The notes: generated by a model not told the origin, from the sequence alone. 39,641 nt of DNA from an uncultured Pseudomonadales bacterium (GCA_964364145.1 CAYILC010000002.1:1-39641); one strand, 5' to 3'; shown: positions 10,505-25,633, counted from the first letter of the stretch. Made by a program: numbers and translations.

Positions 10505-10546
10505 TACATCATGGTTCCGCAGTTTTCTCCTGAAACGCAAAACTCG

Positions 10547-10557
10547 TGTGATACACT
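10547..10557 (+). promoter_or_regulatory. Extended -10 promoter TGTGaTACACT, 7 nt upstream of the topA ATG
   Basis: The identical 11-mer recurs 6 nt upstream of the nfo ATG (23974-23984). There is no SD before the ATG at 10565. Confidence 0.5.
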
Positions 10558-10564
10558 AGGCGCT

Positions 10565-12622
10565 ATGCAACTCGTCTTGGTAGAGTCTCCAACAAAGGCC
10601 CGCAAACTCTCGCAATTTCTCGGGAAAGAGTTCGTTGTGGAGGCGAGTATGGGACACGTGCGCGATCTTCCAAAGCATAAGTTGGGCGTGGATGTTGACC
10701 ACAATTTTGAGCCGGAATACGAACTTTCCGAGGGCAAAAAACTTGTGGTAGCAAAGCTCAAAAAACTCGCACTTTCAGCCGATCGAATTATTTTGGCAAC
10801 AGATCCCGACCGTGAAGGTGAGGCCATTGCCTGGCATCTTTCTGCGTTGTTGAAACCCGCAAAACTGCCAAAAGGAAAAGGAAAAAAATCTATTGAGTTT
10901 GTGCGCTCAACGTTCCATGAAATTACCAAGGATGCGGTGCAACATGCAATCAACAACCCTGGAACGTTAAGTCTGGAGTTATTTGACGCACAGCAAGCCC
11001 GTCGCATATTAGATCGATTAGTCGGGTATTACTTGTCTCCGGTGCTTTGGAAAAAGGTGCGTCGAGGGTTGTCTGCCGGTCGCGTACAGTCTGTAGCGTT
11101 GCGCCTTATCGTCGAAAGAGAAAAAGAGATTAGAGCGTTTGTCCCTATAGCCTACTGGGAAGTCGACTCCTTCGTGAAGACAGAAAAGGGTGAAGAATTT
11201 GCACTTCGACTAACAGAAGAAAATAGCAAACCTTTTGAACCGAGTAGACAAGAAGAGGTAGATGAGGTTGTCGAAAAATTAAACACGGCAACGTATCATG
11301 TGAGCTCGATCGAGAAAACACAGCGTACGCGTGTAAGCTTGCCGCCGTTTACAACCTCAACTCTCCAGCAAACCGCATCGAATCGTTTAGGATGGAGCGC
11401 AAAGCAAACCATGATGATTGCTCAACAACTCTATGAAGAAGGGTATATTACATATCATCGAACCGATTCTGTTGCACTCTCTTCACAAGCAGTCGAGATG
11501 GCTCGCGCATACATTCCAGTCAATTTTGGAAAAAACTATTTGCCCGAAACACCAAGATTTTTCAAGACATTGAGTAAAAATGCACAGGAAGCGCACGAGG
11601 CTGTTCGTCCTACCAATGTGTCCGTACAAGACCCGAAAGAAAGTGTGGGCGAGTTGGCAGATAAACACAAAAAACTGTATAACCTTATTTGGCGGCGATT
11701 TCTAGCAAGTCAAATGGCTTCAGCGGTGTATGATCAAACCACAATTGTGACCGAGACTAAAGCCGAGGTTAAAGAAGATGCAAAACACGCAAGCGATACC
11801 TATGCGTTAAAAACTTCCGGTTCTATTCTTAAGTTCGATGGCTGGATGAAGTTGTTTCCAAATCAGGGTGACGTGATTTTGCCAGATGTACACGAAAAAC
11901 AACCGCTCAACCTCGATCATGTCGAAGCAATCCAAAAGTTTACCCAACCGCCAGCGCGATACAACGATGCCTCGCTCATTAAAACGTTGGAGAAATTGGG
12001 CATTGGTCGCCCAAGTACATATGCCTCGATCATCAGCGTCATTCTAGATCGCGGATATGTTGAACGTAAAGACAGGGCATTTATTGCATCGGCGATTGGC
12101 GAAACGGTTGCGGATTTTCTCGTCAAGCATTTTCCGAAAGAACTCGATTATCAATTTACTGCCGAAATGGAAGACAACTTGGATGCTATTGCCCGCGGAG
12201 AGAAGAAATGGCGGGTTGTACTCAAAACATTTTTCACTCCGTTTGAAAAAACAGTACAAGAGGTGACCAAGGATGCGGATCGAGCGAAAATTCCGGTGGA
12301 GGACACAGGCGAAATGTGCCCGGACTGCAAAGAAGGAAAGTTGGTGATTCGCTCTGGCAAATTTGGCAAGTTTATTAGTTGTTCGCGTTTTCCAGACTGC
12401 AAATACACCGCAAAACTTGTAGAAAAAGTTGAGGGAATGAACTGCCCGGACTGCAAAGAGGGTGATGTGATTATGAAGCGCACCAAGCGCGGACGTATGT
12501 TTTTTGGGTGTTCTCGATATCCTGCCTGTACCTTTGCGAGTTGGAAGAAGCCTGAGGTAGCGGGGGTGATGCTAGTGGAGTTACGGGTGTATAGCGGAGA
12601 GCAAAAATTTCCACTCGAGTAA
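10565..12622 (+). CDS. topA: DNA topoisomerase I
   Basis: Toprim region MQLVLVESPTKARKL...DPDREGEAI, active-site region GYITYHRTDS, and two C-terminal C4 zinc ribbons (CPDCKEG...C..FPDC, CPDCKEG...CSRYPAC). The start at 10565 is preferred over the track start at 10511. Confidence 0.95.
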   Translation: MQLVLVESPTKARKLSQFLGKEFVVEASMGHVRDLPKHKLGVDVDHNFEPEYELSEGKKLVVAKLKKLALSADRIILATDPDREGEAIAWHLSALLKPAKLPKGKGKKSIEFVRSTFHEITKDAVQHAINNPGTLSLELFDAQQARRILDRLVGYYLSPVLWKKVRRGLSAGRVQSVALRLIVEREKEIRAFVPIAYWEVDSFVKTEKGEEFALRLTEENSKPFEPSRQEEVDEVVEKLNTATYHVSSIEKTQRTRVSLPPFTTSTLQQTASNRLGWSAKQTMMIAQQLYEEGYITYHRTDSVALSSQAVEMARAYIPVNFGKNYLPETPRFFKTLSKNAQEAHEAVRPTNVSVQDPKESVGELADKHKKLYNLIWRRFLASQMASAVYDQTTIVTETKAEVKEDAKHASDTYALKTSGSILKFDGWMKLFPNQGDVILPDVHEKQPLNLDHVEAIQKFTQPPARYNDASLIKTLEKLGIGRPSTYASIISVILDRGYVERKDRAFIASAIGETVADFLVKHFPKELDYQFTAEMEDNLDAIARGEKKWRVVLKTFFTPFEKTVQEVTKDADRAKIPVEDTGEMCPDCKEGKLVIRSGKFGKFISCSRFPDCKYTAKLVEKVEGMNCPDCKEGDVIMKRTKRGRMFFGCSRYPACTFASWKKPEVAGVMLVELRVYSGEQKFPLE

Positions 12623-12668
12623 ATTGTCTCAAGCATTGGTATGACCCCACTTGGACTCGGACTACGAC

Positions 12669-12674
12669 TATAAT
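12669..12674 (+). promoter_or_regulatory. Consensus -10 hexamer TATAAT, 6 nt upstream of the kinase ATG
   Basis: The sequence is gacTATAATatagtaATG, with no SD. Confidence 0.45.
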
Positions 12675-12680
12675 ATAGTA

Positions 12681-13735: not shown

Positions 13736-14008
13736 ATGAACTGGAAAACACACAAAAAACTATTACTAAAAAACTCTGAGTTTAAAAAAGCCCTCAAGGA
13801 AACTGAACTTGAGTATTCTATTGCGAGATCCATCATCGAAGCAAGAACACGAAAAGGTATAACGCAGAAAAAATTGGCGATGAAACTGCATACAAAACAA
13901 TCAGTCATTTCTAGAATTGAACACGCAAAAACAACGCCGTCTTTATCATTCCTTAAAAGAATAGCAAAGACATTTAAAACACCTCTTCGTGTTGAGTTTG
14001 GGCCATAA
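13736..14008 (+). CDS. XRE-family helix-turn-helix protein (antitoxin-like)
   Basis: HTH region GITQKKLAMKLHTKQSVISRIE. The 90-aa size and layout resemble HigA/Gp48-type antitoxins, but no toxin ORF is adjacent. Confidence 0.7.
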   Translation: MNWKTHKKLLLKNSEFKKALKETELEYSIARSIIEARTRKGITQKKLAMKLHTKQSVISRIEHAKTTPSLSFLKRIAKTFKTPLRVEFGP

Positions 14009-14058: not shown

Positions 14059-14613
14059 ATGGTTCTTTCTGACAAAGACATCCGCAAGTACATAGCGCAA
14101 AAGAAAATTGTGGTGGAGCCGCTTCATGATGAACACATTCGGCCGGCCGCGATCGATCTTACCCTTCACCAAAATTTCCGCGTATTTCGCAACAACGCGC
14201 ACACGCATATCGATGTAAAAAAAGAGTTTGACGTCACTGAGCTAGTGAAAGCGAAAGAAGATGGCTCGATCATTATTCACCCCCGCGAGTTTATTTTAGG
14301 CTCAACGCAGGAAATCATTACATTGTCTTCCGATCTCATTGGATTATTGGAAGGTCGATCATCGCTTGGGCGCATTGGACTTATCGTGCACGCAACCGCG
14401 AGTTTTGTTCAGCCGGGATTTTCCGGCTATTTGACGTTTGAGATGAGCAATATCAGCAATCTGCCGATCAAGATTTACGCCGGCATGCGTGTTGCACAAC
14501 TTGCATTTTTGCAGATGAGCTCGCCGGTTGAGATTGACTACTCAAAACTGAGTAATAAGTATCAGGACCAGGAGCCGCCAACAGCCTCGAAGATTTGGAA
14601 GGATTTTGAGTAG
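14059..14613 (+). CDS. dcd: dCTP deaminase (dUTPase-fold; possibly bifunctional dCTP deaminase/dUTPase)
   Basis: MVLSDKDIRKYI..., GRSSLGRIGL and the TFEMSN region are typical of the Dcd family. Whether it is mono- or bifunctional cannot be decided by eye. Confidence 0.88.
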   Translation: MVLSDKDIRKYIAQKKIVVEPLHDEHIRPAAIDLTLHQNFRVFRNNAHTHIDVKKEFDVTELVKAKEDGSIIIHPREFILGSTQEIITLSSDLIGLLEGRSSLGRIGLIVHATASFVQPGFSGYLTFEMSNISNLPIKIYAGMRVAQLAFLQMSSPVEIDYSKLSNKYQDQEPPTASKIWKDFE

Positions 14614-14645
14614 GGTGTACAATACACAGTCAAAGAGGAGGAAGT

Positions 14646-14897
14646 ATGGCAAAGATCAAATGGGGCGAAGGTTATCAATATTATGTTGAAGCATTGGACG
14701 GTAGCGTGCTCATTATGGATCTTCTGAAGAGAGAAGGGGTGTTGCCTGGGGAAGTATTACGTTTAGTAATAAAAGGGTTTTCCGGTAAAGAAAACACTGA
14801 TGTGTTATATAAGAGAGAAGGCGAAAGCAGTTTTTCTGCGAGTAATTATCACCAACCGAATACAAACACATCTTCAAGCGCTGCTAAAACTGCTTGA
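14646..14897 (+). CDS. Hypothetical small protein (83 aa)
   Basis: Strong SD AGAGGAGGAAGT immediately upstream, and a TACAAT hexamer at 14618-14623. I recognise no family. The tail is Ser/Thr/Asn-rich. Confidence 0.5.
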   Translation: MAKIKWGEGYQYYVEALDGSVLIMDLLKREGVLPGEVLRLVIKGFSGKENTDVLYKREGESSFSASNYHQPNTNTSSSAAKTA

Positions 14898-14929
14898 TCA
14901 TTCTTACATCTTCCAGTATGCTCTAGCCT

Positions 14930-15097
14930 ATGCTAAAAGCAAAACGCAAAAGAACATTAGTGCCTAGAAAACAACATTTCTCATTTTGGGATATACCAAA
15001 AATAGTTCATTCCTCTGTGAGATTAACAGATTCACAACTTCGTAAAACTAGAGATTCTTTCGAGACAGAATGGGCTAGACATATAAGAATATTGTGA
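14930..15097 (+). CDS. Possible small basic protein (55 aa), below the ORF-track threshold
   Basis: My translation is MLKAKRKRTLVPRKQHFSFWDIPKIVHSSVRLTDSQLRKTRDSFETEWARHIRIL. It fills an otherwise empty 209-nt gap between orf83 and the thyA-like gene. There is no clear SD. Confidence 0.2.
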   Translation: MLKAKRKRTLVPRKQHFSFWDIPKIVHSSVRLTDSQLRKTRDSFETEWARHIRIL

Positions 15098-15106
15098 AAT
15101 ATTGGC

Positions 15107-16741
15107 ATGCAAAAAACCAAAATGACAAAAATAACTAAACAGAAAAAACAATCGTTGTCAAAGAACGCCATCGACCTTTCCCACTGGCCCATCCTCTATA
15201 AAGACATTCTCAAGGTTAAAAATCCTCGCCATCACGTGGCGGTGTGTTGCTTGTGGACCGAGCGCCAAGTCATCGAAACACTGCTCAAAAACATCGAGTA
15301 CAACACCATTGGAAATCTCTACAGCGCACAAGGTATCAACTCCATGATGCGCAATATCTTTGCCAACCCTCACATTCGCGTGATTGTCATTTGGGGCGCA
15401 GAAATGTCGCTCTCTGGCCATTCATTACTCATGTTCAAACAAAAAGGCGTGGATAAAGAAAATCGGAAGATTATTGCGGCGCGCGGTGAGATCGAAAAAG
15501 AAATTCCTGATGACATCATTGAGGAGTTTCGAAAGGTGGTTGAGGTTGTCGATATGCGTGGACGAACGGCAGTAGATCTTGTTGCGAAGGTGAAAGAAAT
15601 GTCCAGCAAACACATGGAGCCATTTTCAGCCAAGACCCGCACCTTCCCGCAGGCCGAAGTCACAGTGCGCACCATGCCATCCGAGCAGGTTGGATTCCGC
15701 GTTTCTGCTCCAACCGTCGCAAAAACTTGGCTAAAGTTGCTCAATGAAATTCAAAAATACGGCCGACCCAAACACACGCGATACAGCAAAGACAACTCGC
15801 TCAAAGAGATCTTGAACTTAACCGCGGTCATCACCGATGAGGATCCAGAAAACATTTATTTCCCAGAATATTTGCCGTTTACGCGTGTAGAGTTGGAGGC
15901 GTATTATGCCGAGATGCTCACGGCTCGCCAAATTCCTGGTGTTGCGTATAACTATGGCAAACGCATGCGTGTAGACTTGGGCGTGGATCAAATTGCCGCG
16001 ATGAAAAATCTGTTGAAAAATCGTCCCGACAGTAAAAAGATGATAGCGACCACCATGAATCCGAAACTTGACTGGAATCAAGTCAACAAAGGGGATACGC
16101 CGTGTTTGGTTATGGTGTTGGGCTCGGTGCAGGACAACAAGTTTTTCTTTACCGCGCACTTTCGATCGCAGGATATGGTGCATGGATGGCCGCGAAACAC
16201 TTTTGCACTGCGCAAGCTGCAAAAGGATATTGCCGACTCTGCCGGCCTGCAAATGGGACCACTAACTATGATCACGCACTCTGCACACATGTACGCCGAT
16301 GATTTTGGTCTTGTGGATAATCTGTTAATGCAACACTATGAACCTGAGCTAGGTTACTCTCCTGCTGTTCACTTCACCTTTGAACCTCGAGGGAATGTGG
16401 TGGTCGAGGTGATTCCAGAAAAAGAGGCCTACGTGTGGCCGATGTTTTCGGAAAAATACAAAGAACAATCGGTGCCGTATGCCGTGGCAAAAACATTGCC
16501 GCTGATGCCAAAAAATCCGCAGTCTCAAGCGGAAAAACTTATTCGCGCCACGCTGTTTGAACCAAATGGTGGGCCAGCAATGAAAGTATTTGAAGGACGA
16601 ACCGCACAAGAAGTCGCATGGCAAATCACAGACTGGAACTATTTATCTGAACCTGGTCACATCATGTATATTGGACTGGAACTGCAAAAAGCAGAGGAGT
16701 CGATTCGAAAAGGGAAGTCGTATAATCAGGATCCGGCGTAA
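15107..16741 (+). CDS. Thymidylate synthase (ThyA-fold) fused to an N-terminal MtrA-like domain and a C-terminal DUF4346-like domain
   Basis: The central region carries ThyA motifs: GVAYNYGKRMR, VDQI, NRPDSKKMIATTMNP, TPC(333)LVM, FRSQD..GWPRN(364) and HSAHMY. The N-terminus (VAVCCLW...NPHIRVIVIWGAEMSLSGHSLL...KGVD...IIAARGEI...VVEVVDMRG) looks like the soluble domain of tetrahydromethanopterin S-methyltransferase subunit A. The C-terminus ends with EPGHIMYIGLELQKAEESIRKGKSYNQD. Confidence 0.8.
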   Translation: MQKTKMTKITKQKKQSLSKNAIDLSHWPILYKDILKVKNPRHHVAVCCLWTERQVIETLLKNIEYNTIGNLYSAQGINSMMRNIFANPHIRVIVIWGAEMSLSGHSLLMFKQKGVDKENRKIIAARGEIEKEIPDDIIEEFRKVVEVVDMRGRTAVDLVAKVKEMSSKHMEPFSAKTRTFPQAEVTVRTMPSEQVGFRVSAPTVAKTWLKLLNEIQKYGRPKHTRYSKDNSLKEILNLTAVITDEDPENIYFPEYLPFTRVELEAYYAEMLTARQIPGVAYNYGKRMRVDLGVDQIAAMKNLLKNRPDSKKMIATTMNPKLDWNQVNKGDTPCLVMVLGSVQDNKFFFTAHFRSQDMVHGWPRNTFALRKLQKDIADSAGLQMGPLTMITHSAHMYADDFGLVDNLLMQHYEPELGYSPAVHFTFEPRGNVVVEVIPEKEAYVWPMFSEKYKEQSVPYAVAKTLPLMPKNPQSQAEKLIRATLFEPNGGPAMKVFEGRTAQEVAWQITDWNYLSEPGHIMYIGLELQKAEESIRKGKSYNQDPA

Positions 16742-16799
16742 AAAAGAACTTTATAAATGTTCTCTGCCTCCTCAGTGCAACAATAAAACGATTTTCTCC

Positions 16800-16817
16800 A
16801 CCCTTCGGGTCTTTTTT
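16800..16817 (+). terminator. Weak intrinsic terminator candidate after the thyA-like gene
   Basis: ACCC-ttc-GGGT stem followed by cTTTTTTg. The stem is only 4 bp, so confidence is low. Confidence 0.25.
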
Positions 16818-16851
16818 GTCTTTACAGGATTTACATATTCGTTACACTGAA

Positions 16852-17841
16852 ATGTATCCAAAGTGGAAAACATCCACTTTTGATCCCAAGAAACTCTGGA
16901 ACAATCCAGAGAAACCAAGTGAACAAAAGGGGGTGTTGTTGTCTGCAGTTGATGTGTATTCTCCCAAAAATATTTTTTTGATCAACGACGATATTCGCGT
17001 AGCTGAACTTCAGGCATTTTGTGGAATTAAGGGGTGTTTGCGGGATCTATTAGGAGGGTGCAGTACAGTACAAGCAAACGCCAATGAAGTTAAAACTCCG
17101 GGTATTGACTATATGTTTCGTCGGAATGGTGGATTGCATGTGAGTGTGGAGTGTGAAAGGCATCCACAGTATCTGGAACCACTTTCATCTTCTGCTCCAG
17201 AGGCTGCTTTACATAAGGCTTGGCATCTTCACAACGAAACAGGTAAACCCTCTGCTGCTTCAGACATCTTTTTTTATATTCACAATGAGCAAACAGGCAA
17301 GTGGGAGGTTCAGCATAAACTTGAACGTTTAAAACGTGAGCTCACTTCACATGAACTCGAACAAGAAATACAAGAACAACACAAGTTTCTTGTAGAAGGG
17401 AAGCATAGAAGGAAAGCCTTTTGGCATCCCGCGTTGGCGCTGGTCAATGGCTCGTCTTCTGGAGTATCGGATTATGTATGTGTTGAGTTTGATCCGTTTA
17501 TAGAGGAAGAGTTTGAGGCGTTTATGATTGACGCGCTCAGTACAGGCAAGTTTATAAACTCAAATGCTAGAGGGAGATTGATAGAGTATATTATTGAGTT
17601 CAAAAAACTTCGCGCATATGCCAACATCCCGTATACTTTTATTGAAACACATACCGGGAATGGGAATAGAGTTGACGTGGGTAGGTGGATGCAAGAATGG
17701 CATATGCAAGATATAGATGCGATAAATATGCTTATATACCAGATCGTTCAAGCACTTCCACACGCTTTGCGATTGATGAGACATAAAAACTTTGCCAAAA
17801 CTGTGTTTAAGCGAAATGGTGCAGTAACTTTTGAAGTGTGA
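16852..17841 (+). CDS. Hypothetical protein (329 aa from ATG 16852; the track start TTG 16816 lies in the T-run of the putative terminator)
   Basis: Long uninterrupted ORF between the thyA-like gene and tmk, with its stop 13 nt before the tmk GTG. I recognise no family and see no TM segments. Confidence 0.55.
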   Translation: MYPKWKTSTFDPKKLWNNPEKPSEQKGVLLSAVDVYSPKNIFLINDDIRVAELQAFCGIKGCLRDLLGGCSTVQANANEVKTPGIDYMFRRNGGLHVSVECERHPQYLEPLSSSAPEAALHKAWHLHNETGKPSAASDIFFYIHNEQTGKWEVQHKLERLKRELTSHELEQEIQEQHKFLVEGKHRRKAFWHPALALVNGSSSGVSDYVCVEFDPFIEEEFEAFMIDALSTGKFINSNARGRLIEYIIEFKKLRAYANIPYTFIETHTGNGNRVDVGRWMQEWHMQDIDAINMLIYQIVQALPHALRLMRHKNFAKTVFKRNGAVTFEV

Positions 17842-17854
17842 TATAAGGAATGTT

Positions 17855-18484
17855 GTGCAAAAAGGTTACTTAATTTCATTTGAAGGCGGCGAGGGAGCAG
17901 GGAAGACCGTTCAGATTAAGCGTCTTCGCGATACATTAACAGAACGAGGTTTTGACGTGGTGATTGTACGCGAACCGGGCGGAACCGTAATCTCGGAGCA
18001 GATCCGCGAAGTAGTGTTATCGGCAAAAAACATCGGCATTGCATACACTACCGAGGTTTTACTGTTTCAAGCGGCGCGCGCGCAACTGTATCGCGAGTTG
18101 GTTCTCCCAAGTCTTGAGGCACAGAAGATCGTCCTGATGGATCGTACCCGTGACTCCTCTATAATCTACCAAGGCATAGTGCGCCAATTTGGCGTGGACA
18201 CTATTGAAAAACTCAACAATATTTCAACTAAAGACACCTACCCCGACCTCACCTTTTTACTCGACATTCCAGTAGAGATTGGACTTGCACGGCGGTCCCA
18301 AACCGAAAAGATGGATAGACTTGATATGGAAACAAAAGATTTTCACCAAAAAGTACGCAATGCATATCTTGAGGTGGCGAAGAAGAATGATCATCATCGA
18401 TGGGCAGTTATAGATGCCTCGAAATCAATCGACAAAATAGCAGAAAATATTTGGAACATAGTCGAGAAAAAACTGAAACAGTGA
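17855..18484 (+). CDS. tmk: Thymidylate kinase (dTMP kinase)
   Basis: GYLISFEGGEGAGKT P-loop, REPGGT, and a DR..S motif (MDRTRDSSIIYQG). I chose the GTG at 17855, which follows an AAGGAA SD; the alternative is the TTG at 17831. Confidence 0.9.
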   Translation: MQKGYLISFEGGEGAGKTVQIKRLRDTLTERGFDVVIVREPGGTVISEQIREVVLSAKNIGIAYTTEVLLFQAARAQLYRELVLPSLEAQKIVLMDRTRDSSIIYQGIVRQFGVDTIEKLNNISTKDTYPDLTFLLDIPVEIGLARRSQTEKMDRLDMETKDFHQKVRNAYLEVAKKNDHHRWAVIDASKSIDKIAENIWNIVEKKLKQ

Positions 18485-18509
18485 AATACCTCTGGATACA
18501 GTATTGGTG

Positions 18510-18538
18510 TTGAACCTTTTATTTTCTTCGTGCATAAT
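18510..18538 (+). promoter_or_regulatory. Promoter TTGAAC-17 nt-CATAAT upstream of pyrH
   Basis: The -35 lies at 18510-18515 and the -10 at 18533-18538, preceded by TG. The 13-mer TCGTGCATAATAC (18528-18540) is identical to the one upstream of the sucC-like gene (38554-38566). Confidence 0.5.
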
Positions 18539-18581
18539 ACACCAGAACTTCTTATTCCGAAAAATCTTATTGGAGAAACTT

Positions 18582-19349
18582 ATGGTAATATCACAGCCAA
18601 ATCAGAAAAAAACTTCCACACGTTTTTCTCGAGTTCTTCTCAAAGTTGGCGGTGAGTCATTATTGGGTGATCGAGAGTATGGCATTTCACCTCAAGCAGC
18701 ATTAACCGTCGCAAAGCAAATCAAAGAAATTTATGATCTTGGTGTGCAGTTGGTTATTGTTGTTGGTGGCGGCAACATTTTCCGAGGGGTCGCTGGTGAG
18801 AAAAGCGGTATTGACCGAGCAACAGCAGACTATATGGGTATGCTTGCAACAGTCATCAATGCACTTGGATTACAGGATGCCTTAGAAAAAGTTGGCGTTC
18901 CAACACGCGTGCAGTCTGCCTTACAAATGCCGGCGGTTTCCGAGCCGTTTATTCGTCGCAGAGCAATTCGGCATTTAGAAAAGGGTAGAGTAGTGATCTT
19001 GGCCGCGGGAACAGGTGTACCATATGTGACGACCGATACAGGAGCATCCCTTCATGCCTTGGAACTTCACTGCGATGTGGTGATGAAGGCAACAAAAGTT
19101 GATGGAGTCTACGACAAAGATCCGATGAAATTTCCAGATGCCAAACGGTATAAAACGTTAAAGTTTATTGATGCACATAAGGATGAGAATGTTTTAGTGA
19201 TGGACTCTAGCGCTTTGGCCATGTGTATGGAGAACAACATGCCGGTGATGGTATTTGAACTGTTCAAGGCAGGAAATTTAAAGAAAGCGATTATTGGTGA
19301 GGATGTGGGAACATACGTGGCGAATGATGTGGAGACGGTGCTGGCGTAA
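18582..19349 (+). CDS. pyrH: Uridylate (UMP) kinase
   Basis: RVLLKVGGESL and VVGGGNIFRG amino-acid-kinase-fold motifs. The ATG at 18582 is preferred over the track start at 18504. Confidence 0.9.
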   Translation: MVISQPNQKKTSTRFSRVLLKVGGESLLGDREYGISPQAALTVAKQIKEIYDLGVQLVIVVGGGNIFRGVAGEKSGIDRATADYMGMLATVINALGLQDALEKVGVPTRVQSALQMPAVSEPFIRRRAIRHLEKGRVVILAAGTGVPYVTTDTGASLHALELHCDVVMKATKVDGVYDKDPMKFPDAKRYKTLKFIDAHKDENVLVMDSSALAMCMENNMPVMVFELFKAGNLKKAIIGEDVGTYVANDVETVLA

Positions 19350-19374
19350 ATAGTCTGGCAAAAGATAGCTAGCA

Positions 19375-19403
19375 TTGACAACATACAACATACAACATAC
19401 AAT
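19375..19403 (+). promoter_or_regulatory. Near-consensus sigma70-type promoter TTGACA-17 nt-TACAAT, ending 6 nt before the vapB ATG
   Basis: The -35 TTGACA lies at 19375-19380. The 17-nt spacer consists of ACATACA heptamer repeats, and the -10 TACAAT lies at 19398-19403. ATG 19410 is the expected TSS position, so the mRNA would be leaderless. Confidence 0.6.
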
Positions 19404-19409
19404 CACGGC

Positions 19410-19649
19410 ATGATTCGTACACAGATCTATATTCCAGATGAGATGTATCAGCATGTTATGGTTATTTCCAAGACAAGTGGGGAGAACTTTTCCGTGATTG
19501 TTCGCAAGAGTATTGATGGATATTTGAAGAAAACTACTGGAAAAAAGCGCGCAAAAAAATTTGGCAAAGGATTTATTGGAGCTGGAAAAGGAAAAATACC
19601 TCGAGACCTAGCCCAAAATGTTGATACATATCTCTATGGAGGAGAGTAA
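19410..19649 (+). CDS. vapB: Type II antitoxin (VapB-like, probable ribbon-helix-helix N-terminus)
   Basis: 79 aa with N-terminal MIRTQIYIPDEMYQHV.. and a Lys/Gly-rich tail. It ends 5 nt before the PIN-domain gene. Confidence 0.6.
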   Translation: MIRTQIYIPDEMYQHVMVISKTSGENFSVIVRKSIDGYLKKTTGKKRAKKFGKGFIGAGKGKIPRDLAQNVDTYLYGGE

Positions 19650-19654
19650 TTCTC

Positions 19655-20071
19655 ATGTCAGAGTATTTCCTTCTTGATACGAATGTTCTTCTGGCATTGT
19701 ATTGGCCCCATGATAATCTCCATATTCGTGCCGTAAACATGGTTACCAGTCTTCGGGATAAAAAAGCCCAATTCGCGACGGTTAGTCTTGTTATTCAGGA
19801 GTGCGTTACAGTGATCAGTATGCGAAAAGGAATGGATTCAGCAAAAGATTTTTATGCACATTATGGAACGATCATAGAAAAGGTGATTCAATTTGATGAA
19901 CAGCTTGAAGACAAGGCATGGAGAATTTTCCTCAAGCAAAAGAAGAAAGGCACATCGTTTGTTGATTGTGCGCTTGTGGCTACTGCAAAAAAACTTGGCA
20001 TGAAGGATATTCTTACCTATGACAAGTGGTTTAAATCCTGTGGTTTTCCGCTACAATACACCCAATCATGA
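19655..20071 (+). CDS. vapC: PIN-domain ribonuclease toxin VapC
   Basis: FLLDTNVLL (first acidic residue), ..QECVTV.., and SFVDCALVATAKKLGMKDILTYD, which are typical PIN acidic-residue positions. A GGAGAG SD lies upstream. Confidence 0.8.
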   Translation: MSEYFLLDTNVLLALYWPHDNLHIRAVNMVTSLRDKKAQFATVSLVIQECVTVISMRKGMDSAKDFYAHYGTIIEKVIQFDEQLEDKAWRIFLKQKKKGTSFVDCALVATAKKLGMKDILTYDKWFKSCGFPLQYTQS

Positions 20072-20155
20072 CAAATATATCGGCTGATCCCATTTTTGAT
20101 TTCATTAAAAAAAGAAGAACAGCGGCAAGAGAAGTAACTTGCGCTATAAAACTTC

Positions 20156-21049
20156 TTATGTAAAAGATGTGAGTCCCAATGCTTGCATTGCTGTGGGATT
20201 TGCACCATATGTGTTCGTCAAAGCCCCAACGATTTTTTCTACTTGTTGTTCTGGAGTAAGAAAGGTTGTGTCTACAATGAGATGAAGACCGCTATAAATA
20301 GTATGAGGATCATAGACTATTCCATATTGATTGTTGAATATGGATTGATCATCCGCATATCTCGTTGAACGTGCTTGATCTGCATCAAAGAGTTCACTGG
20401 GTGACGGTTGATAGTCAGGGGGTTTGTTGTTTTGTCGTCTCACATGACGCACATTTGCCACCCTTCTTGCACTGGTGAAACCTATGGCGATTTGTACAAG
20501 GTCAGGAGGGAGAAGCTGTGCATTTGAAATAGGGCAGTGCTCCATACAAAGAAGGTTCCATAGCAACTTAGTATCGAGAATAACAGGTACATGTTGATCA
20601 AGTTTATAAGCTTTAATAACACGGTTGGTACATGCTTCATCAATCATCAGATCGAAATTTTGCGGAGGATTTTCCTTGCGAGCATAACGAAGAACCTTAT
20701 CTTTATCAACATCCGTATCCGGCGACATATTGTGTTGTGTTCTATACCATTTACTCGCGAGGCTCAAAAACACCTTGCCAACGTATACTACGCGATCATC
20801 AGGAATTTTTAAGAATCGAACAAGAGCATCTCTGGTAGTTGTTATTCCCACCGCTCCAACCTGTTGATCATCTGGGTAAGCAGTCAATGAAATCAAAATA
20901 GGTTTTGAAGTAAACCCGGAAGCATCAGGATGAGAAAGTGATTCTGGTTCGGGTAAAGGACGACCACCTGGTCGAATAGGAACCGCGTATCGCCAAGCCT
21001 CTTCAACCGATGGATCTTTAAATGCTAGATATTCAGATTGCCCGAACAT
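20156..21049 (-). CDS. Divergent cytidylate-kinase-like (archaeal/type-2 CMK-like) protein with an atypical P-loop and an N-terminal extension
   Basis: By-eye alignment to archaeal CMK: ISLT..VGAVGITTTRDALVRFL (P-loop region), VVYVGKVF, VPVILDTKLLWNLL, DLVQIAIGFTSARRVANV and QYGIVYDPHTIYSGLHLIVDTTFLTPEQQVEKIV. I chose the ATG at 21049; the track start is the GTG at 21073. The functional call is tentative. Confidence 0.45.
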   Translation of the reverse strand: MFGQSEYLAFKDPSVEEAWRYAVPIRPGGRPLPEPESLSHPDASGFTSKPILISLTAYPDDQQVGAVGITTTRDALVRFLKIPDDRVVYVGKVFLSLASKWYRTQHNMSPDTDVDKDKVLRYARKENPPQNFDLMIDEACTNRVIKAYKLDQHVPVILDTKLLWNLLCMEHCPISNAQLLPPDLVQIAIGFTSARRVANVRHVRRQNNKPPDYQPSPSELFDADQARSTRYADDQSIFNNQYGIVYDPHTIYSGLHLIVDTTFLTPEQQVEKIVGALTNTYGANPTAMQALGLTSFT

Positions 21050-21063
21050 AATACGAATTGCAC

Positions 21064-21088
21064 ATTGTATCACATCAGGTGGTACAAT
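21064..21088. promoter_or_regulatory. Back-to-back divergent extended -10 promoters: minus-strand TGaTACAAT and plus-strand TGgTACAAT
   Basis: The plus strand reads ATTGTAtca-catcagg-tggTACAAT, a hexamer-level inverted repeat. The glyA ATG is 8 nt downstream of the plus-strand hexamer, and the cmk-like ATG at 21049 is 14 nt downstream of the minus-strand hexamer. Confidence 0.5.
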
Positions 21089-21096
21089 AACCCGAT

Positions 21097-22425
21097 ATGA
21101 AAACTTCTACTGATCCAGTTTTTACACTCATCCAGCAAGAAAAAAAACGACAAGAAGAGACGCTCGCACTGATTCCTTCGGAGAATTATACGTCTCCAGA
21201 GGTTATGAAGGCTGTTGGCTCGGTGCTCATGAACAAGTATGCAGAAGGTCAAGCAAAAAAACGATACTACCAAGGCAATACGATTATCGATGAAGTGGAG
21301 CTACTTTGTAAATCACGAGCACTCCAAGTATTTGGTCTACGTGAGGATGAATGGGGGGTAAATGTTCAAACGCTTTCTGGAAGTCCGGCGAACTTGGCGG
21401 TATACGCCGCTTTGCTGGAGCCAGGGGATAAGATCTTTTCAATGTATCTTCCTGATGGAGGCCATTTATCGCATGGCTGGCAAATGCCTGGAAAAAAAGT
21501 AACCTTAGTCTCAAAGATTTGGGACATCGAGTTTTATCATGTAAGTAAAGAAACGCGTGTGTTCGATTATGATCAAATCGAGCAACAGGCGCTAAAGTTT
21601 AGACCAAAGCTTATTGTTTCGGGCGGAACCGCGTATCCTCGTGAAATCGATCACAAACGTATGGGGGCTATTGCCAAAAAAGTTGGAGCATATTATCTTG
21701 CAGATGTTGCGCATGAGGCTGGGCTTATTGCCGGCGGCGCAAACACTTCACCATTTCCGTATGCTGATGTTGTAAGCATGACCACACACAAAACACTCCG
21801 TGGCCCTCGCGGCGCGATGGTGTTTGCCCGAAAACCAATTGATGAAGCAATAGACAAAGCAGTTTTTCCTGGCCTTCAAGGTGGTCCGCATGAACACACT
21901 ATTGGCGGCATTGCTGTGGCACTTGGAGAGGCACTACGGCCTTCTTTTAAGAATTATGCCCGGCAAGTAGTGGTTAATGCACAGCTCTTGGCTGCCAAGT
22001 TAAAATCTGCTGGATATGATGTTGTCTCGGATGGTACCGATAAACACTTGGTCTTGGTTGATCTCCGTTCTGTTGGTCTTTCCGGATGGGTGGCGGCTTG
22101 GGCTTTGGAGTATGCCGGGATTGTTGTGAATCGCAATACTGTTCCATACGAAACCGCGTCACCGTTTTTTCCTTCTGGTTTACGATTGGGAACCCCAGCA
22201 GTAACTACTCGAGGTATGAAAGAAAAAGAAATGCAGTATATTGCTGATTGGATCATCAAGATACTTACGTACGCAAAGAAGTGGCAACTCCCTGAAGATA
22301 TAGAACGTCGCAAGGAATTTACTCGGGCATTTCGAAAAGAAATCGTTACAGATCGTTTTCTTCATGATGTGCGAAAAAATGTTGTTGCGCTTTGTAAACG
22401 GTTCCCGATTTACAGGAAGTCATGA
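21097..22425 (+). CDS. glyA: Serine hydroxymethyltransferase
   Basis: SENYTSPEVM, and the PLP-lysine region VSMTTHKTLRGPRG. Confidence 0.95.
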   Translation: MKTSTDPVFTLIQQEKKRQEETLALIPSENYTSPEVMKAVGSVLMNKYAEGQAKKRYYQGNTIIDEVELLCKSRALQVFGLREDEWGVNVQTLSGSPANLAVYAALLEPGDKIFSMYLPDGGHLSHGWQMPGKKVTLVSKIWDIEFYHVSKETRVFDYDQIEQQALKFRPKLIVSGGTAYPREIDHKRMGAIAKKVGAYYLADVAHEAGLIAGGANTSPFPYADVVSMTTHKTLRGPRGAMVFARKPIDEAIDKAVFPGLQGGPHEHTIGGIAVALGEALRPSFKNYARQVVVNAQLLAAKLKSAGYDVVSDGTDKHLVLVDLRSVGLSGWVAAWALEYAGIVVNRNTVPYETASPFFPSGLRLGTPAVTTRGMKEKEMQYIADWIIKILTYAKKWQLPEDIERRKEFTRAFRKEIVTDRFLHDVRKNVVALCKRFPIYRKS

Positions 22426-23933
22426 TATATATTGTCGATTTTGGCTCACAGACCGCGCATTTAATCGGGAGGCGGTTGCGCGACATTGGTGTTCACATCG
22501 AATATATCGTTCCCTCAGAAATTCTTTCAAAAATACAGAAACAAAAACCGCAAGGCATTATTTTTTCGGGTGGCCCTTCCTCTGTTTATGAAAAAGGCGC
22601 ACCAACTATTTCATCCAAAGTTTTCTCATTGAAGATTCCTATTTTAGCGATCTGCTATGGTTGGCAACTCATGGCAAAGAAACTCGGTGGTCAAGTAAAA
22701 AGCGGTCAAAAAGAGTACGGCCCAGCAACAATAACGTTTTCCAAGAATGTATTTGCACTGCCAAAAACATCATACTCGGTCATCATGTCGCATGGAGACA
22801 GTGTCACAAAACTTCCTCCAGGATTTTCTGCGATCGGCACTACACCTCGAGTTCCATTCGCTGCCGTGACAGATCAAACAAGAAATTTTTTTGGACTTCT
22901 TTTTCATCCCGAAGCCGATCATACGCAGCAAGGCAACAATATTCTTACGTACTTTGCAGAAAAAGTGTGTAAAGAGAAACTTATGCCTCTTTCTATAGAT
23001 CCGCGTTTGTTCATCGAACAAATTCGTCAAACGGTAGGAAAAGAAAAGATTATTTGCGCTGTGTCTGGCGGGGTGGACTCTACTGTTGCGGCCGCGCTCA
23101 TTGGAAAAGCAATCGGCAAGCAACTTATCGCGGTGTATGTCGAAAGCGGACTTATGCGTCAAGGAACAATTAAAAATGTGCGGCAACTTTTTACTCGTCA
23201 TGTAAAGACAAAACTTGTGGTGATCCAGGCTAGAAAGCGATTTCTTCGAGCACTTAAAGGTATTACCGATCCTGAAAAAAAGAGAAAAGCGATTGGAAAG
23301 CTCTATATCGATATATTCAGCGAAGAAGCAAAGAAACATAGGAACATTTCTTTTTTGGGGCAAGGAACGATTTACTCCGACGTTATCGAATCCAAGGGAA
23401 GCAAGCATGCTTCAAAGATTAAGTCGCATCACAATGTTGGCGGGTTGCCAAAGGGAATGAAGATGAGGTTAATCGAACCACTTCGGACATTTTATAAGGA
23501 TGAGGTGCGTGTACTTGGCAGAAAACTTGGTATTCCGGAAGAGTTTGTCAAACAGCGCGCATTTCCCGGACCAGGATATGCCATTCGCATCCGAGGAGAA
23601 GTTACCGAACAGCGTCTTGCACAAGAGATTCAAGCGGACAATATTGTTGTGGAGGAGCTCAAGCGCGCTCATTTATATGACAAGTGCTTTCAATGTTTTG
23701 CGGTAATGACCGGAGCGTATAGCACTGCGGTAAAGGGCGATGCCCGCGTGTTTGCCGAGGTTGTTGCGGTGCGCGCATATGAATCAAACGACGTCATGAC
23801 CTCCCAGTGGGCGGATATTCCATATGAAGTCCTCTCAACAATTTCATCAAGAATTGTAAATGAGGTTCCACAAATCTCTCGCGTGGTGTACGACATCACC
23901 AATAAACCACCCGCAACAATGGAATGGGAGTAG
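22422..23933 (+). CDS. guaA: GMP synthase (glutamine-hydrolysing)
   Basis: GATase domain (ILAICYGWQL, FHPE), PP-loop SGGVDS, and the C-terminal dimerisation domain ending ..PPATMEWE. There is an ATGA overlap with glyA. Confidence 0.95.
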   Translation: MIYIVDFGSQTAHLIGRRLRDIGVHIEYIVPSEILSKIQKQKPQGIIFSGGPSSVYEKGAPTISSKVFSLKIPILAICYGWQLMAKKLGGQVKSGQKEYGPATITFSKNVFALPKTSYSVIMSHGDSVTKLPPGFSAIGTTPRVPFAAVTDQTRNFFGLLFHPEADHTQQGNNILTYFAEKVCKEKLMPLSIDPRLFIEQIRQTVGKEKIICAVSGGVDSTVAAALIGKAIGKQLIAVYVESGLMRQGTIKNVRQLFTRHVKTKLVVIQARKRFLRALKGITDPEKKRKAIGKLYIDIFSEEAKKHRNISFLGQGTIYSDVIESKGSKHASKIKSHHNVGGLPKGMKMRLIEPLRTFYKDEVRVLGRKLGIPEEFVKQRAFPGPGYAIRIRGEVTEQRLAQEIQADNIVVEELKRAHLYDKCFQCFAVMTGAYSTAVKGDARVFAEVVAVRAYESNDVMTSQWADIPYEVLSTISSRIVNEVPQISRVVYDITNKPPATMEWE

Positions 23934-23973
23934 GCAATACGTGGTGATTTTGACTTCAAGCGTGATTCTATGC

Positions 23974-23984
23974 TGTGATACACT
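23974..23984 (+). promoter_or_regulatory. Extended -10 promoter TGTGaTACACT, 6 nt upstream of the nfo ATG
   Basis: This is the same 11-mer as upstream of topA. There is no SD. Confidence 0.5.
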
Positions 23985-23990
23985 CTCCCT

Positions 23991-24833
23991 ATGAAAACAC
24001 CTCGTCGACTTGGCGCCCATCTTTCTGTTGCTGGCGGTCTTGTCAGCGCCGCACAAAATATGATTTCCATGAGTGGTAACTGTTTGCAGATTTTTTCCGG
24101 ATCTCCGAGAAGTTGGACCAGAAAGCCGTTGGAGCAAGCAAAAGCGGATGCGTATAAAACATTCTGCAAAGACCACAATTTTGGCCCAACCTTTATCCAC
24201 GCACTGTATCTCATCAATTTGAGTGGTGATCGCGACGACCTCATCCACCATTCGATTGATGCACTCACATATGATCTACAATACTCATCGCAGATTGGCG
24301 CAAGCGGAGTCATTGTCCATCTGGGAAGTCACCTTGGAAAGGGTTTTGAAGCGGTGTTTGATGTGTTGGTAAAGCGCATGCGCGAAATCTTGGATGCGAC
24401 ACCTACTAATAGCACGTTACTCATTGAAAATTCTGCGGGGCAGAAAGGAAAGTTGTGTTCTGATTTTGCCGATATTCAACGGCTATATACTGCGTTGCCC
24501 ACGTATGTCGAAAAACAACGACTTGCTTGGTGTTTTGATACGTGTCATGGATTTGCGGCGGGGTATGACTTGGCGCATATAGACCAGGAAATGAAGAAAC
24601 ACGATTTGTTGAACTCTCTCAAAGTAATCCACTTGAACGACTCACGCGATCCTTTTAACAGTGGCCGTGATCGTCATGAGAATATTGGCAAAGGATTGAT
24701 TGGAGAGAACGGGATGAAATCGGTCGCACAAAACCCAGCATTTGCACATCTCCCACTCATTCTGGAAGTCCCAGGTTTTGACGGCAACGGTCCGGATGCA
24801 AAAAATATTGAGATTGTAAAGAACCTCATATGA
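23991..24833 (+). CDS. nfo: Endonuclease IV (AP endonuclease, TIM barrel)
   Basis: GAHLSVAGGL, VIVHLGSH, IENSAGQ, VIHLNDS and LILEVP metal-site regions. Confidence 0.9.
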   Translation: MKTPRRLGAHLSVAGGLVSAAQNMISMSGNCLQIFSGSPRSWTRKPLEQAKADAYKTFCKDHNFGPTFIHALYLINLSGDRDDLIHHSIDALTYDLQYSSQIGASGVIVHLGSHLGKGFEAVFDVLVKRMREILDATPTNSTLLIENSAGQKGKLCSDFADIQRLYTALPTYVEKQRLAWCFDTCHGFAAGYDLAHIDQEMKKHDLLNSLKVIHLNDSRDPFNSGRDRHENIGKGLIGENGMKSVAQNPAFAHLPLILEVPGFDGNGPDAKNIEIVKNLI

Positions 24834-25633
24834 TGATCTTTGACGGCAAAGCCGTAGCTTATGAGCGAAAGAAACTACTGAAAGAGAAGATCAGTAAACT
24901 TCCTCATTTACGTATATATTCATTGGTATTTCAAGAAGATCATCCTAGTATAATTTATGCCAACTTGAAGAAAAAAGATGCTGAATCGGTTGGAGTAGAG
25001 TACGAGATTGTCATCCTGCCAATAAGTACAACACTTGAAGAAGTGAAAGAGCGACTTTTACAAGCAGGAGCAGATTCAACAATTTCAGCAATCATTGTCC
25101 AAAAACCAGCGAAGACTTTGGAGCCAAACCCAACTTGGTGGTCAGAAATTGTTTCATCAATTCATCAAAAAAAAGACGTGGATGGCCTTCGGCTAGATCG
25201 AGTGGTACTTCCGGCAACAGCGCGGGCAATTCTCTCGATCTTTGATAGTGCATGTGAACACCTGCGATTCAAGCCGAAAGGGAAAGTTGCAGTGGTTTTA
25301 GGAAGAAGTGAAATTGTGGGAAAACCTGTCGCCGATGAACTTGAAAAGCGGTATCACATGATTGTGCATCGGTTTGGCCGCAAAGAACTTGCAACTCAGC
25401 CGGAAATACTCAAACAGGCAGACTTACTCGTATCTGCCACAGGACAAGAAGGTTTGGTAACGGACGACATGCTAAAACAGGGAGTGATTGTTATTGACGC
25501 GGGATCGCCGAAAGCAGAGGTAAACACAACAGGGTTGTTTGAGGTTGCAAGTTTTCTTTCACCGGTTCCTGGCGGCGTTGGGCCGATGACACGAGTCTGC
25601 CTCTTGGAAAATCTTATTGACCTGGTACAATAG
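24830..25633 (+). CDS. folD: Bifunctional 5,10-methylene-THF dehydrogenase/cyclohydrolase
   Basis: VLGRSEIVGKPVA Rossmann region and the PVPGGVGPMT C-terminal signature. There is an ATGA overlap with nfo. The protein is somewhat short at 267 aa. Confidence 0.88.
   Translation: MMIFDGKAVAYERKKLLKEKISKLPHLRIYSLVFQEDHPSIIYANLKKKDAESVGVEYEIVILPISTTLEEVKERLLQAGADSTISAIIVQKPAKTLEPNPTWWSEIVSSIHQKKDVDGLRLDRVVLPATARAILSIFDSACEHLRFKPKGKVAVVLGRSEIVGKPVADELEKRYHMIVHRFGRKELATQPEILKQADLLVSATGQEGLVTDDMLKQGVIVIDAGSPKAEVNTTGLFEVASFLSPVPGGVGPMTRVCLLENLIDLVQ
25623..25631 (+). promoter_or_regulatory. Extended -10 promoter TGgTACAAT inside the folD 3' end, upstream of the rpsB leader
   Basis: The same 9-mer occurs at glyA (21080-21088) and rpsT (29446-29454). 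It would give a ~75-nt rpsB 5' UTR containing a hairpin at 25659-25690 and the SD AAGGAG. Confidence 0.45.

Follow-up and report, generated by a model that had tools for sequence, protein, structure and literature searches.

Gene Content of the Locus

We analyzed a 39,641-nt stretch of DNA from an uncultured bacterium (GCA_964364145.1 CAYILC010000002.1:1-39641; hereafter the window, meaning this whole stretch), in which genes of dTMP synthesis and one-carbon metabolism are gathered around the gene of a three-domain thymidylate synthase (TS). It represents contig C2 of a genome of 830 kb (87 contigs, 93% complete), and the database names of the nearest protein relatives indicate an affinity to Microgenomates/Pacebacteria-like Patescibacteria (Candidate Phyla Radiation, CPR). 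Genes were identified by means of an open reading frame (ORF) list and of Pfam and NCBIfam searches (table 1). An earlier prediction, made from the sequence of this stretch alone, had listed dcd, orf83, a possible orf55, a ThyA-like fusion, orf329, tmk, pyrH, vapBC, a cmk-like gene, glyA, guaA, nfo, and folD, and had described them as a route from dCTP to dTDP combined with regeneration of the one-carbon donor. Every gene named was found where it had been placed, and the members of this route (Dcd, TS, Tmk, and GlyA/FolD) were all confirmed. The window also contains rpsB and tsf downstream of folD. The starts given for tmk (17855), pyrH (18582), and the cmk-like gene (21049) are probable ones, derived from orthologs.

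Table 1. Features of the window (coordinates counted from its first nucleotide) and the basis on which they were assigned
Feature	Position	Strand	Basis or remark
fmt	2237-2764	-	Sole Formyl_trans_N match of the genome; 12 kb upstream of the cluster
topA, topoisomerase I	10511..12622	+	Pfam Topoisom_bac/Toprim; conserved upstream anchor of the cluster
APH-like kinase gene	12651-13547	+	PF01636
XRE antitoxin-like helix-turn-helix (HTH) gene	about 13736-14008	+	PF01381
dcd, dCTP deaminase	14059..14613	+	TIGR02274, 196 bits
orf83, small ORF	14646..14897	+	No family match
orf55, MazE/AbrB-type antitoxin fragment	14930..15097	+	Match to MazE of strain L061 (PF04014)
TS fusion, 544 amino acids (aa)	15107..16741	+	PF04208 + PF00303 + PF14251, all above cut-off
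orf329, putative nucleoside-triphosphate pyrophosphatase	16852..17841	+	Predicted ITPase/Maf (Ham1)-like fold; no Pfam match
tmk, thymidylate kinase	17855..18484	+	PF02223, E 2e-44
pyrH, UMP kinase, bacterial-type	18582..19349	+	TIGR02075, 291 bits
vapB (ribbon-helix-helix, RHH) + vapC (PIN), toxin-antitoxin pair	19410..20071	+	PF12651, PF01850
cmk-like gene	20156..21049	-	Weak hhalign match to Cmk and colinear motifs
glyA, serine hydroxymethyltransferase	21097..22425	+	PF00464, 523 bits
guaA, GMP synthase	22422..23933	+	GATase + GMP_synt_C; variable cluster member
nfo, endonuclease IV	23991..24833	+	TIGR00587, 198 bits
folD, methylene-tetrahydrofolate (THF) dehydrogenase/cyclohydrolase	24830..25633	+	PF02882 + PF00763

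Conservation of the Cluster in Related Genomes

To investigate the conservation of this gene order, proteins of the window were mapped onto the DNA flanking the TS gene in 20 relatives, up to 10 kb on either side and less at contig ends. The conserved backbone has the order topA-dcd-TS-tmk-pyrH-glyA-nfo-folD-rpsB-tsf. Representatives of the two closest genera (G002 and G007, TS 85% identical) show topA-dcd-TS-[variable]-tmk-pyrH-glyA-[cmk-like]-nfo-folD-rpsB-tsf, and the same backbone was observed in the metagenomic strains L060 and L061 (TS 94% and 92% identical, respectively) as well as in the NCBI assembly L066. Among the 20 relatives, topA is located 0–6 kb upstream of TS in 18 and tmk is downstream of TS in 13. 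The tmk-pyrH pair is retained in G002, G007, G008, L060, and L066, and nfo-folD-rpsB-tsf in G002, G007, and L060.

More distant relatives have other arrangements: a ribonucleotide reductase gene lies directly upstream of TS in four genomes, one genome has glyA-TS-folD-rpsB-tsf, and others have a HAD hydrolase gene in the order HAD-dcd-TS. Subsets of the cluster (ribonucleotide reductase-TS, TS-tmk, and glyA-TS-folD-rpsB-tsf) recur across the order. The genome gave a single further match to the folate-dependent families that were searched, fmt; neither FTHFS nor dCMP deaminase was found in it. Because this only fmt is also in the window, the genes of the four folate-dependent enzymes that the genome was found to encode (Fmt, TS, GlyA, and FolD) all lie within 24 kb.

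The clustering is thus beyond chance: since the backbone recurs in the closest relatives, with its order kept in G002, G007, L060, and L066, it is not accidental. The cluster is a vertically inherited, functionally coherent housekeeping neighborhood of thymidylate and one-carbon genes.

Variable Junctions between Backbone Genes

Inserts that vary between strains are found at the junctions of the backbone, including toxin-antitoxin (TA) pairs, orf55, orf83, guaA, and orf329. Between dcd and TS, the window has orf83 and orf55, L060 a 79-aa ORF, and L061 a full MazE-PIN pair; G002 and G008 have nothing. The TS/tmk junction is occupied by orf329 or a homolog in the window and L066, by an unrelated 356-aa ORF in G002, and by genes of Fic-domain proteins in several genomes, and is empty in L060. 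Between pyrH and glyA, vapBC and the cmk-like gene are found in the window and vapBC in L060 and L066, with nothing in G002 and G007. At the topA/dcd junction, the genes of an APH-like kinase and an XRE protein in the window correspond to a Gp49 toxin gene and the same XRE gene in L061, and to nothing in G002 and G008. The guaA gene is present at the same spot in L060 (93% identical) and is missing from it in G002 and G007. The original prediction had regarded the uncharacterized ORFs as sitting exactly where accessory functions would be expected, an idea at odds with junction contents that swap between strains. Nor are these ORFs conserved next to TS: orf83, orf55, orf329, and vapBC were not detected near TS in any of the 20 relatives.

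The vapB and vapC genes encode an RHH antitoxin followed, after a 5-nt gap, by a PIN toxin, as in type II TA modules. The pair is 89–92% identical in L060 and L066, and it is missing in G002 and G007, in which pyrH directly adjoins glyA; it is a strain-variable insert. The top promoter-like site of the region (19375-19403) is located ahead of vapB. The XRE/HTH gene shares 92% identity with the antitoxin gene of the Gp49(toxin)-HTH pair found between topA and dcd in L061. Its toxin slot in the window is taken by the APH-like phosphotransferase gene, which leaves the XRE gene an orphan.

The ORF that had been proposed as a possible orf55 does exist, but as an accessory gene it did not stand. It shares 50% identity (E 3e-16) with residues 25-80 of MazE in the L061 MazE-PIN pair, which is likewise located between dcd and TS; since it matches only this C-terminal half, it is an antitoxin fragment. 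A full SpoVT/AbrB-type domain with an adjacent toxin was not found, as there is no PIN gene beside orf55, and its candidacy as a metabolic gene was rejected. In the DNA alignment, orf55 appears as an insert behind a conserved leader sequence of TS. This conserved sequence of about 45 nt (...cttgcttgatcatt..ac.tcttccagtatgctctagcct) directly precedes the start of TS in L060 and L061; the window copy (14898-14929 and 15098-15106) is parted from TS by the orf55 insert. It possibly acts as a leader or promoter of TS.

A search of 200 genomes of the order found no credible homolog of orf83. The single relative detected, the 79-aa ORF at the same junction in L060, is 47% identical and lies between genes that are 94–98% identical. 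A ribosome-binding site is conserved between the two ORFs, so orf83 is probably a genuine small gene that evolves quickly.

A further family of about 335 aa was observed beside TS in five relatives (L031 1780-2802, with homologs in L029, L032, L033, and L034). The L031 member, the sole one scanned, contains a Fic domain, and a small ORF of 88–137 aa, which represents another shared family, lies in the TS-tmk stretch of four of these five relatives. The two families represent another variable, toxin-like module at the TS locus.

A Three-Domain Thymidylate Synthase

The TS protein consists of an MtrA-like domain (residues ~25-174), an archaeal-type ThyA core (~199-411), and a DUF4346 domain (~477-542). 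The core spans the full length of TIGR03283 (E 1e-36; 126 bits, below the cut-off of 175 bits) and matches PF00303 with 52 bits (cut-off 24). C333, R353, S354, D356, N364, H394, and Y396, which correspond to ThyA catalytic residues, are invariant in 47 sequences. A good AlphaFold2 (AF2) model was obtained (predicted local distance difference test, pLDDT, 84). A Foldseek search with the whole model gave 403 PDB matches at E<=0.001, and the best 50 of the 403 were all ThyA-fold enzymes; the nearest structures are those of short enzymes with this fold, among them the phage dCMP hydroxylase 9iqu/9iqc, which is flavin-dependent (target TM-score 0.75–0.80).

The MtrA-like domain matches PF04208 with 56 bits (cut-off 25) and the MtrA structures 8q3v/5laa with E 3e-12. 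In M. jannaschii MtrA, the cobalt-ligating residue is His84. In the HMMER alignment, the cobalt-ligating "GH" of 5laa falls in a 2-residue gap of TS, and a near-invariant His105 follows two residues on, in the same loop. Both the MtrA-like and the DUF4346 domain are rich in invariant residues. A sequence search of the PDB with the DUF4346 domain returned nothing relevant, and this domain is also found at the C-terminus of archaeal dihydropteroate synthase (DHPS)-like proteins (TIGR00284 match).

The fusion is the only PF00303 match, and thus the only gene of the ThyA family, in the genome; a search of the genome for thyX, which the original prediction had considered worth looking for, found none. 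All 13 genomes of the same family have the three-domain TS. No description of an MtrA-ThyA-DUF4346 fusion was found in the literature, including Filee et al. (2023).

The genome also encodes three or four paralogous class II NrdJ ribonucleotide reductases (C39, 452-2569, 2993-5302, and 7170-end; C77/C75), one of which is split by intein-like insertions (C77, open frame of 1013 aa). As these enzymes are adenosylcobalamin-dependent, the organism must acquire cobamide. Two observations concern fusion-type TS genes elsewhere. In G037 (C42:33283-38558, L037/L042), an apparently split three-domain TS, a canonical thyA, and a gene similar to that of dihydrofolate reductase (DHFR) are located side by side, a locus which may capture the replacement of one TS type by the other. 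In G115 and G153 (family f15), in-frame TGA codons occur in fusion-type TS matches, which could be due to gene decay or to a recoded stop.

Distribution of DHFR and TS Types

The original prediction had remarked that no DHFR is visible here. This is true for the window, but a gene of the DHFR superfamily is present elsewhere in the genome. Contig C27 ends within a DHFR_1/RibD_C-like ORF, whose remainder is on C68; because the contig ends overlap by exactly 55 nt, the two contigs are adjacent in the genome, and C27:10806-11183 and C68:1-166 together give a complete protein of 170 aa. This protein is above both Pfam cut-offs (RibD_C PF01872, 63 bits; DHFR_1 PF00186, 38 bits, cut-off 25). Its best PDB match, over the full length, is 1cz3/1d1g, "dihydrofolate reductase" (E 3e-22), presumably the Thermotoga maritima enzyme. 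By HMM and PDB similarity, the C27/C68 gene is therefore a putative DHFR gene. Judged by the criteria that the original prediction had set itself, the proposal of accessory ORFs fails for this genome.

At the level of the lineage, the puzzle is real. TS type and DHFR were tabulated in 201 genomes of the order, which are kin to one another, so that the counts and their Fisher P values overstate independence; the reductase search covered the DHFR superfamily, with FolM/PTR1-type short-chain dehydrogenases/reductases (SDR) and flavin enzymes lying outside it. Among 95 genomes with canonical ThyA only, 89 have a strong DHFR_1 match and 91 (96%) have some DHFR-superfamily gene above cut-off. The corresponding numbers for the 41 genomes with the three-domain TS only are 0 and 20 (49%), with weak, RibD_C-type DHFR_1 matches in three of them, this genome among them. 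A DHFR-superfamily gene was also found in 14 of the 62 genomes without a PF00303 match. In canonical-ThyA genomes, the DHFR gene often adjoins thyA. The contrast between the two TS types repeats inside families f8, f9, f11, and f14, and even within genus g55, where DHFR_1 is found in all of five canonical-ThyA genomes and in none of six fusion genomes, three of which have a RibD_C-family gene. A similar co-occurrence pattern marked ThyX as FolA-independent. The order-wide pattern points to the MtrA-like and DUF4346 domains of the TS itself and not to the flanking ORFs.

Dcd as a Probable Source of dUMP

The best PDB relatives of Dcd are 2qxx/4a6a/2qlp (178 bits, compared with 101 bits for E. 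coli Dcd, 1xs1). We take these entries to be the bifunctional dCTP deaminase-dUTPase of M. tuberculosis, which forms dUMP. Because Dcd is much closer to them than to E. coli Dcd, a direct step from dCTP to dUMP is likely, and Dcd is probably of the dUMP-forming bifunctional type. No member of the dUTPase family besides dcd was found in the genome. If Dcd forms dUMP, no separate dut would be needed, and the missing dut, which the original prediction had thought an accessory ORF might replace, would leave no gap.

orf329: a Rare Family with a Predicted Ham1/Maf Fold

Searches against Pfam, NCBIfam, PHROG, and PADLOC gave no family match for orf329, orf83, orf55, or the cmk-like gene, and none of 21 members of the orf329 family has a Pfam match. 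An ORFan was considered and rejected, as homologs of orf329 turned up in 24 representative clusters, and no more, when 1.84 billion representative proteins were searched exhaustively with HMMER. Alignment of the family revealed invariant K81, D138, R159, E245, and P303, near-invariant E109, K122, W191, and N199-G200, and a further family position at SN237-238.

A model of orf329 was built with AF2 from an alignment of 10 rows, obtained from homolog searches that yielded four proteins (profile A1) and six proteins (P0143). It has a predicted TM-score (pTM) of 0.71, and the pLDDT of its core is mostly 72–90 with dips to ~60. In a Foldseek search with this model, PDB ranks 1–29 were all RdgB/Ham1/ITPase/Maf proteins or entry 9v0g, which we take to be the HAM1-like KomBC complex (E 3.7e-5 to 7e-3, probability ~1.0, target TM-score 0.43–0.52). 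Profile comparison pointed in the same direction. An hhalign alignment of profile A1 with a Ham1 profile built from 17 relatives (A6) gave E 3.5e-4 and a probability of 37%, with the match ending at column 110, and K81, E109, K122, and D138 of orf329 were aligned with the phosphate- and metal-binding residues K13, E43, K55, and D70-71 of Ham1. When PDB sequences were searched with the family profile, Ham1 3tqu ranked first (E 0.008). Single sequences of the genome, which also has canonical Maf and Ham1 genes, did not match A1 significantly (Maf E 0.22, Ham1 E 0.057), and the C-terminal Ham1 signature FGYDP...SHR is unmatched in the alignment A1. The modeled structure thus has the ITPase/Maf (Ham1) fold; since there is neither an HMM match nor an SHR-type motif, orf329 is a member of this superfamily that is neither Ham1 nor Maf.

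The distribution of orf329 is patchy. It or a homolog lies directly upstream of tmk-pyrH in the window, in L066, and in G008; in the last of these, TS is on a separate contig from the orf329 homolog (contigs C8 and C2 do not overlap). Homologs are also present in 13 of 55 genomes of family f13, in the row RluA / purine-type phosphoribosyltransferase (PRTase) / orf329 homolog / Vut transporter / glyA / folD, where the start of the homolog overlaps the PRTase gene by 11 nt. It is absent from the closest strain, L060, in spite of the 94% identity of TS, and G002 and G007 keep dcd-TS-tmk without it. The 356-aa ORF of G002 was tried as a hidden homolog and rejected, as a profile search gave no match. 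We read orf329 as an optional addition and not an obligatory partner of TS; judging from its predicted fold, it would most likely act as a (d)NTP pyrophosphatase that forms a monophosphate. The earlier guess of a "dUTPase or nucleotidase" fits this nucleotide-pyrophosphatase fold, but orf329 is not a conserved neighbor of TS.

The cmk-Like Antisense Gene

A single-sequence search detected relatives of the cmk-like gene in 3 of 200 other genomes; an HMM of the family added G007, and the alignment also accommodates a 326-aa ORF of L060. Members are found in L066, L060, G002, G007, G009, and G054, all of them beside glyA, nfo, or folD, and on the opposite strand wherever flanking genes are visible. 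A profile search of the PDB with the family returned nothing relevant and no kinase, and there was no match to PF02224 at E<=0.01. Comparison by hhalign with the genome's own Cmk, whose genuine gene is located on contig C7, gave E 0.0053 and a probability of 6.8% over 195 colinear columns (Cmk residues 12-232).

Colinear with Cmk are a GxxGxG that resembles a P-loop, a lid rich in Arg, and DTT.LTPEQ at the C-terminus. The Walker-A motif GxxGxGK[ST] is incomplete: across the seven members, the place of its Lys is taken by I, I, A, V, E, L, and V, and in the G007 member, which has V there, the next-but-one residue is Lys. A cmk-like gene, as originally predicted, is thus present and weakly similar to Cmk, but it has no HMM match and its Walker-A Lys is replaced. 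It encodes a semi-conserved, Cmk-shaped neighbor with a disabled P-loop, which is probably a nucleotide-binding or regulatory protein and not a kinase.

Interpretation of the Locus

Taken together, we consider it quite likely that the region is a conserved housekeeping dTMP/one-carbon neighborhood of a CPR bacterium with mostly variable inserted ORFs. Dcd, if dUMP-forming, would turn dCTP into dUMP, the three-domain TS would methylate dUMP with the one-carbon unit loaded onto folate by GlyA, and Tmk would make dTDP; FolD would supply 10-formyl-THF to Fmt. The genes of the cluster may be co-transcribed. Several points weigh against this interpretation. Promoter and terminator scans of the region gave chance-level results except for the vapB promoter. 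The AF2 model of orf329 is moderate (pLDDT 68, 10-sequence alignment), the assignment of the cmk-like gene is weak (hhalign probability 7%), and the bifunctionality of Dcd rests on similarity to a PDB entry that is taken to be bifunctional. In addition, orf329 is perhaps more integral than optional cargo, since it occurs with nucleotide genes in two lineages and its f13 homolog overlaps the preceding gene.

A gene neighborhood without functional meaning, packed by accident, might be suspected in a small and gene-dense genome where the presence of guaA, vapBC, and orf329 varies from strain to strain. It is extremely improbable, given that the backbone has the same order in different genera whose TS is 85% identical, that differing nucleotide/one-carbon subsets surround TS elsewhere (NrdJ-TS, glyA-TS-folD, and HAD-dcd-TS), and that the four folate-dependent enzymes lie so close together. 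The inserted ORFs allow more than one explanation. The original prediction suggested that orf83, orf55, and orf329 are dedicated to the dTMP pathway as enzymes or regulators (with roles in DHF recycling or as dUTPase or nucleotidase), placed where the pathway needs them. The predicted fold of orf329, its position directly upstream of tmk in three lineages (the window, L066, and G008), and the lack of dut in the genome are consistent with this suggestion, and L060, G002, and G007, which keep dcd-TS-tmk without orf329, argue against it, as do the lack of an orf83 homolog in 200 genomes of the order, the origin of orf55 as an antitoxin fragment, the apparently bifunctional Dcd, and the DHFR-superfamily gene elsewhere. 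For the ORF set as a whole it is largely refuted, and we regard it as unlikely. It is very improbable that orf329 and its variable neighbors are defense or mobile cargo, with orf329 as a HAM1-like nucleotide sensor in the manner of KomB/KomC. The KomBC complex (9v0g_A) is indeed among the Foldseek matches, TA and Fic modules occupy the same junctions, and orf329 is patchily distributed; however, there is no PADLOC or PHROG match and no effector partner nearby, the f13 homolog is part of a row of housekeeping genes (PRTase-X-Vut-glyA-folD) and overlaps the PRTase gene by 11 nt, and the catalytic K/E/K/D positions are conserved in the family.

A different possibility concerns the TS itself. Its MtrA-like and DUF4346 domains might free it from FolA, either because the reduced pterin is regenerated in cis or because another reductant is used, as in ThyX. 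The difference between the two groups of genomes in strong DHFR_1 matches (89/95 versus 0/41) and in any DHFR-superfamily gene (91/95 versus 20/41), its repetition in four families and in genus g55, the frequent adjacency of FolA and canonical ThyA, and the invariant-rich extra domains, one of which also ends archaeal DHPS-like proteins, are in agreement with this. On the other hand, this genome and 19 other fusion genomes carry a DHFR-superfamily protein, unrelated reductases (a FolM/PTR1-type SDR or a flavin enzyme) fall outside the survey, and the compared genomes are related, which overstates independence. We therefore propose such a role of the two domains only tentatively. A broader proposal, which we likewise consider possible but doubtful, combines a FolA-independent TS with an orf329 family that forms a new branch of ITPase/Maf proteins and feeds or controls the (d)NMP pools on which TS, Tmk, or PRTase draw; its members could, for instance, be non-canonical pyrophosphatases that act on dUTP or dNTPs.

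The cluster itself, as a housekeeping neighborhood, is ordinary. Annotation of its hypothetical genes by association can mislead because such genes in CPR operons are often strain-variable inserts (TA pairs or remnants). Two observations nevertheless offer leads for bench work. Canonical FolA never occurs together with the three-domain TS as the sole TS across the order, and about half of the genomes concerned are without any DHFR-superfamily gene; if true, a FolA-independent TS would be a third solution beside ThyA with FolA and ThyX, and would alter reconstructions of folate and thymidylate metabolism, as well as antifolate sensitivity, in CPR bacteria and DPANN archaea. The other lead is the orf329 family, which is rare, has no Pfam match and a predicted Ham1/Maf fold, and is present in nucleotide operons of two lineages.

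Comparison with Known Systems

The inserts resemble type II TA modules (VapBC, MazE-PIN, and HigA/Gp49): the window has an RHH-PIN pair, orf55 is related to MazE, and the XRE protein to the antitoxin of a Gp49 pair. They differ from complete modules in that orf55 is without the N-terminal DNA-binding half of MazE and without a toxin, and the XRE gene stands without its toxin partner. In the weak hhalign match, 195 columns of the cmk-like family run in line with the genome's own cytidylate kinase (PF02224), including an R-rich lid-like segment and DTT.LTPEQ; unlike cytidylate kinase, it has no HMM match, its Walker-A Lys is replaced, "GRD" is changed to "DTK/DAK", and the gene is antisense to the operon wherever this is visible.

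With Ham1/RdgB/ITPase and Maf proteins (PF01725, PF02545; PDB 1k7k, 3tqu, 4heb), orf329 shares the predicted fold and the N-terminal catalytic Lys/Glu/Lys/Asp. It is longer (329 aa against ~200) and has invariants of its own (R159, W191, NG199-200, SN237-238, and E245).

The core of the TS fusion matches the methanogen-type short TS (TIGR03283) over the full length and has invariant ThyA catalytic residues, although its score is below the cut-off of that family. As in the protozoan bifunctional DHFR-TS, a TS is fused to extra domains; here, these are MtrA-like and DUF4346 domains instead of DHFR.

In CPR bacteria, glyA, folD, and folA are common, and CPR folA has been shown to be functional (PMC11974145); synteny of thyA and folA is known in ordinary bacteria (cited in PMC11974145). 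In the present cluster, no folA adjoins TS, and the junctions hold strain-variable TA inserts. What it has in common with bacterial nucleotide and one-carbon operons is the clustering of functionally linked dTMP and folate-cycle genes; what distinguishes it from them, and from the thyA-folA pair, is that dcd, tmk, pyrH, glyA, nfo, and folD are assembled around a three-domain archaeal-type TS.

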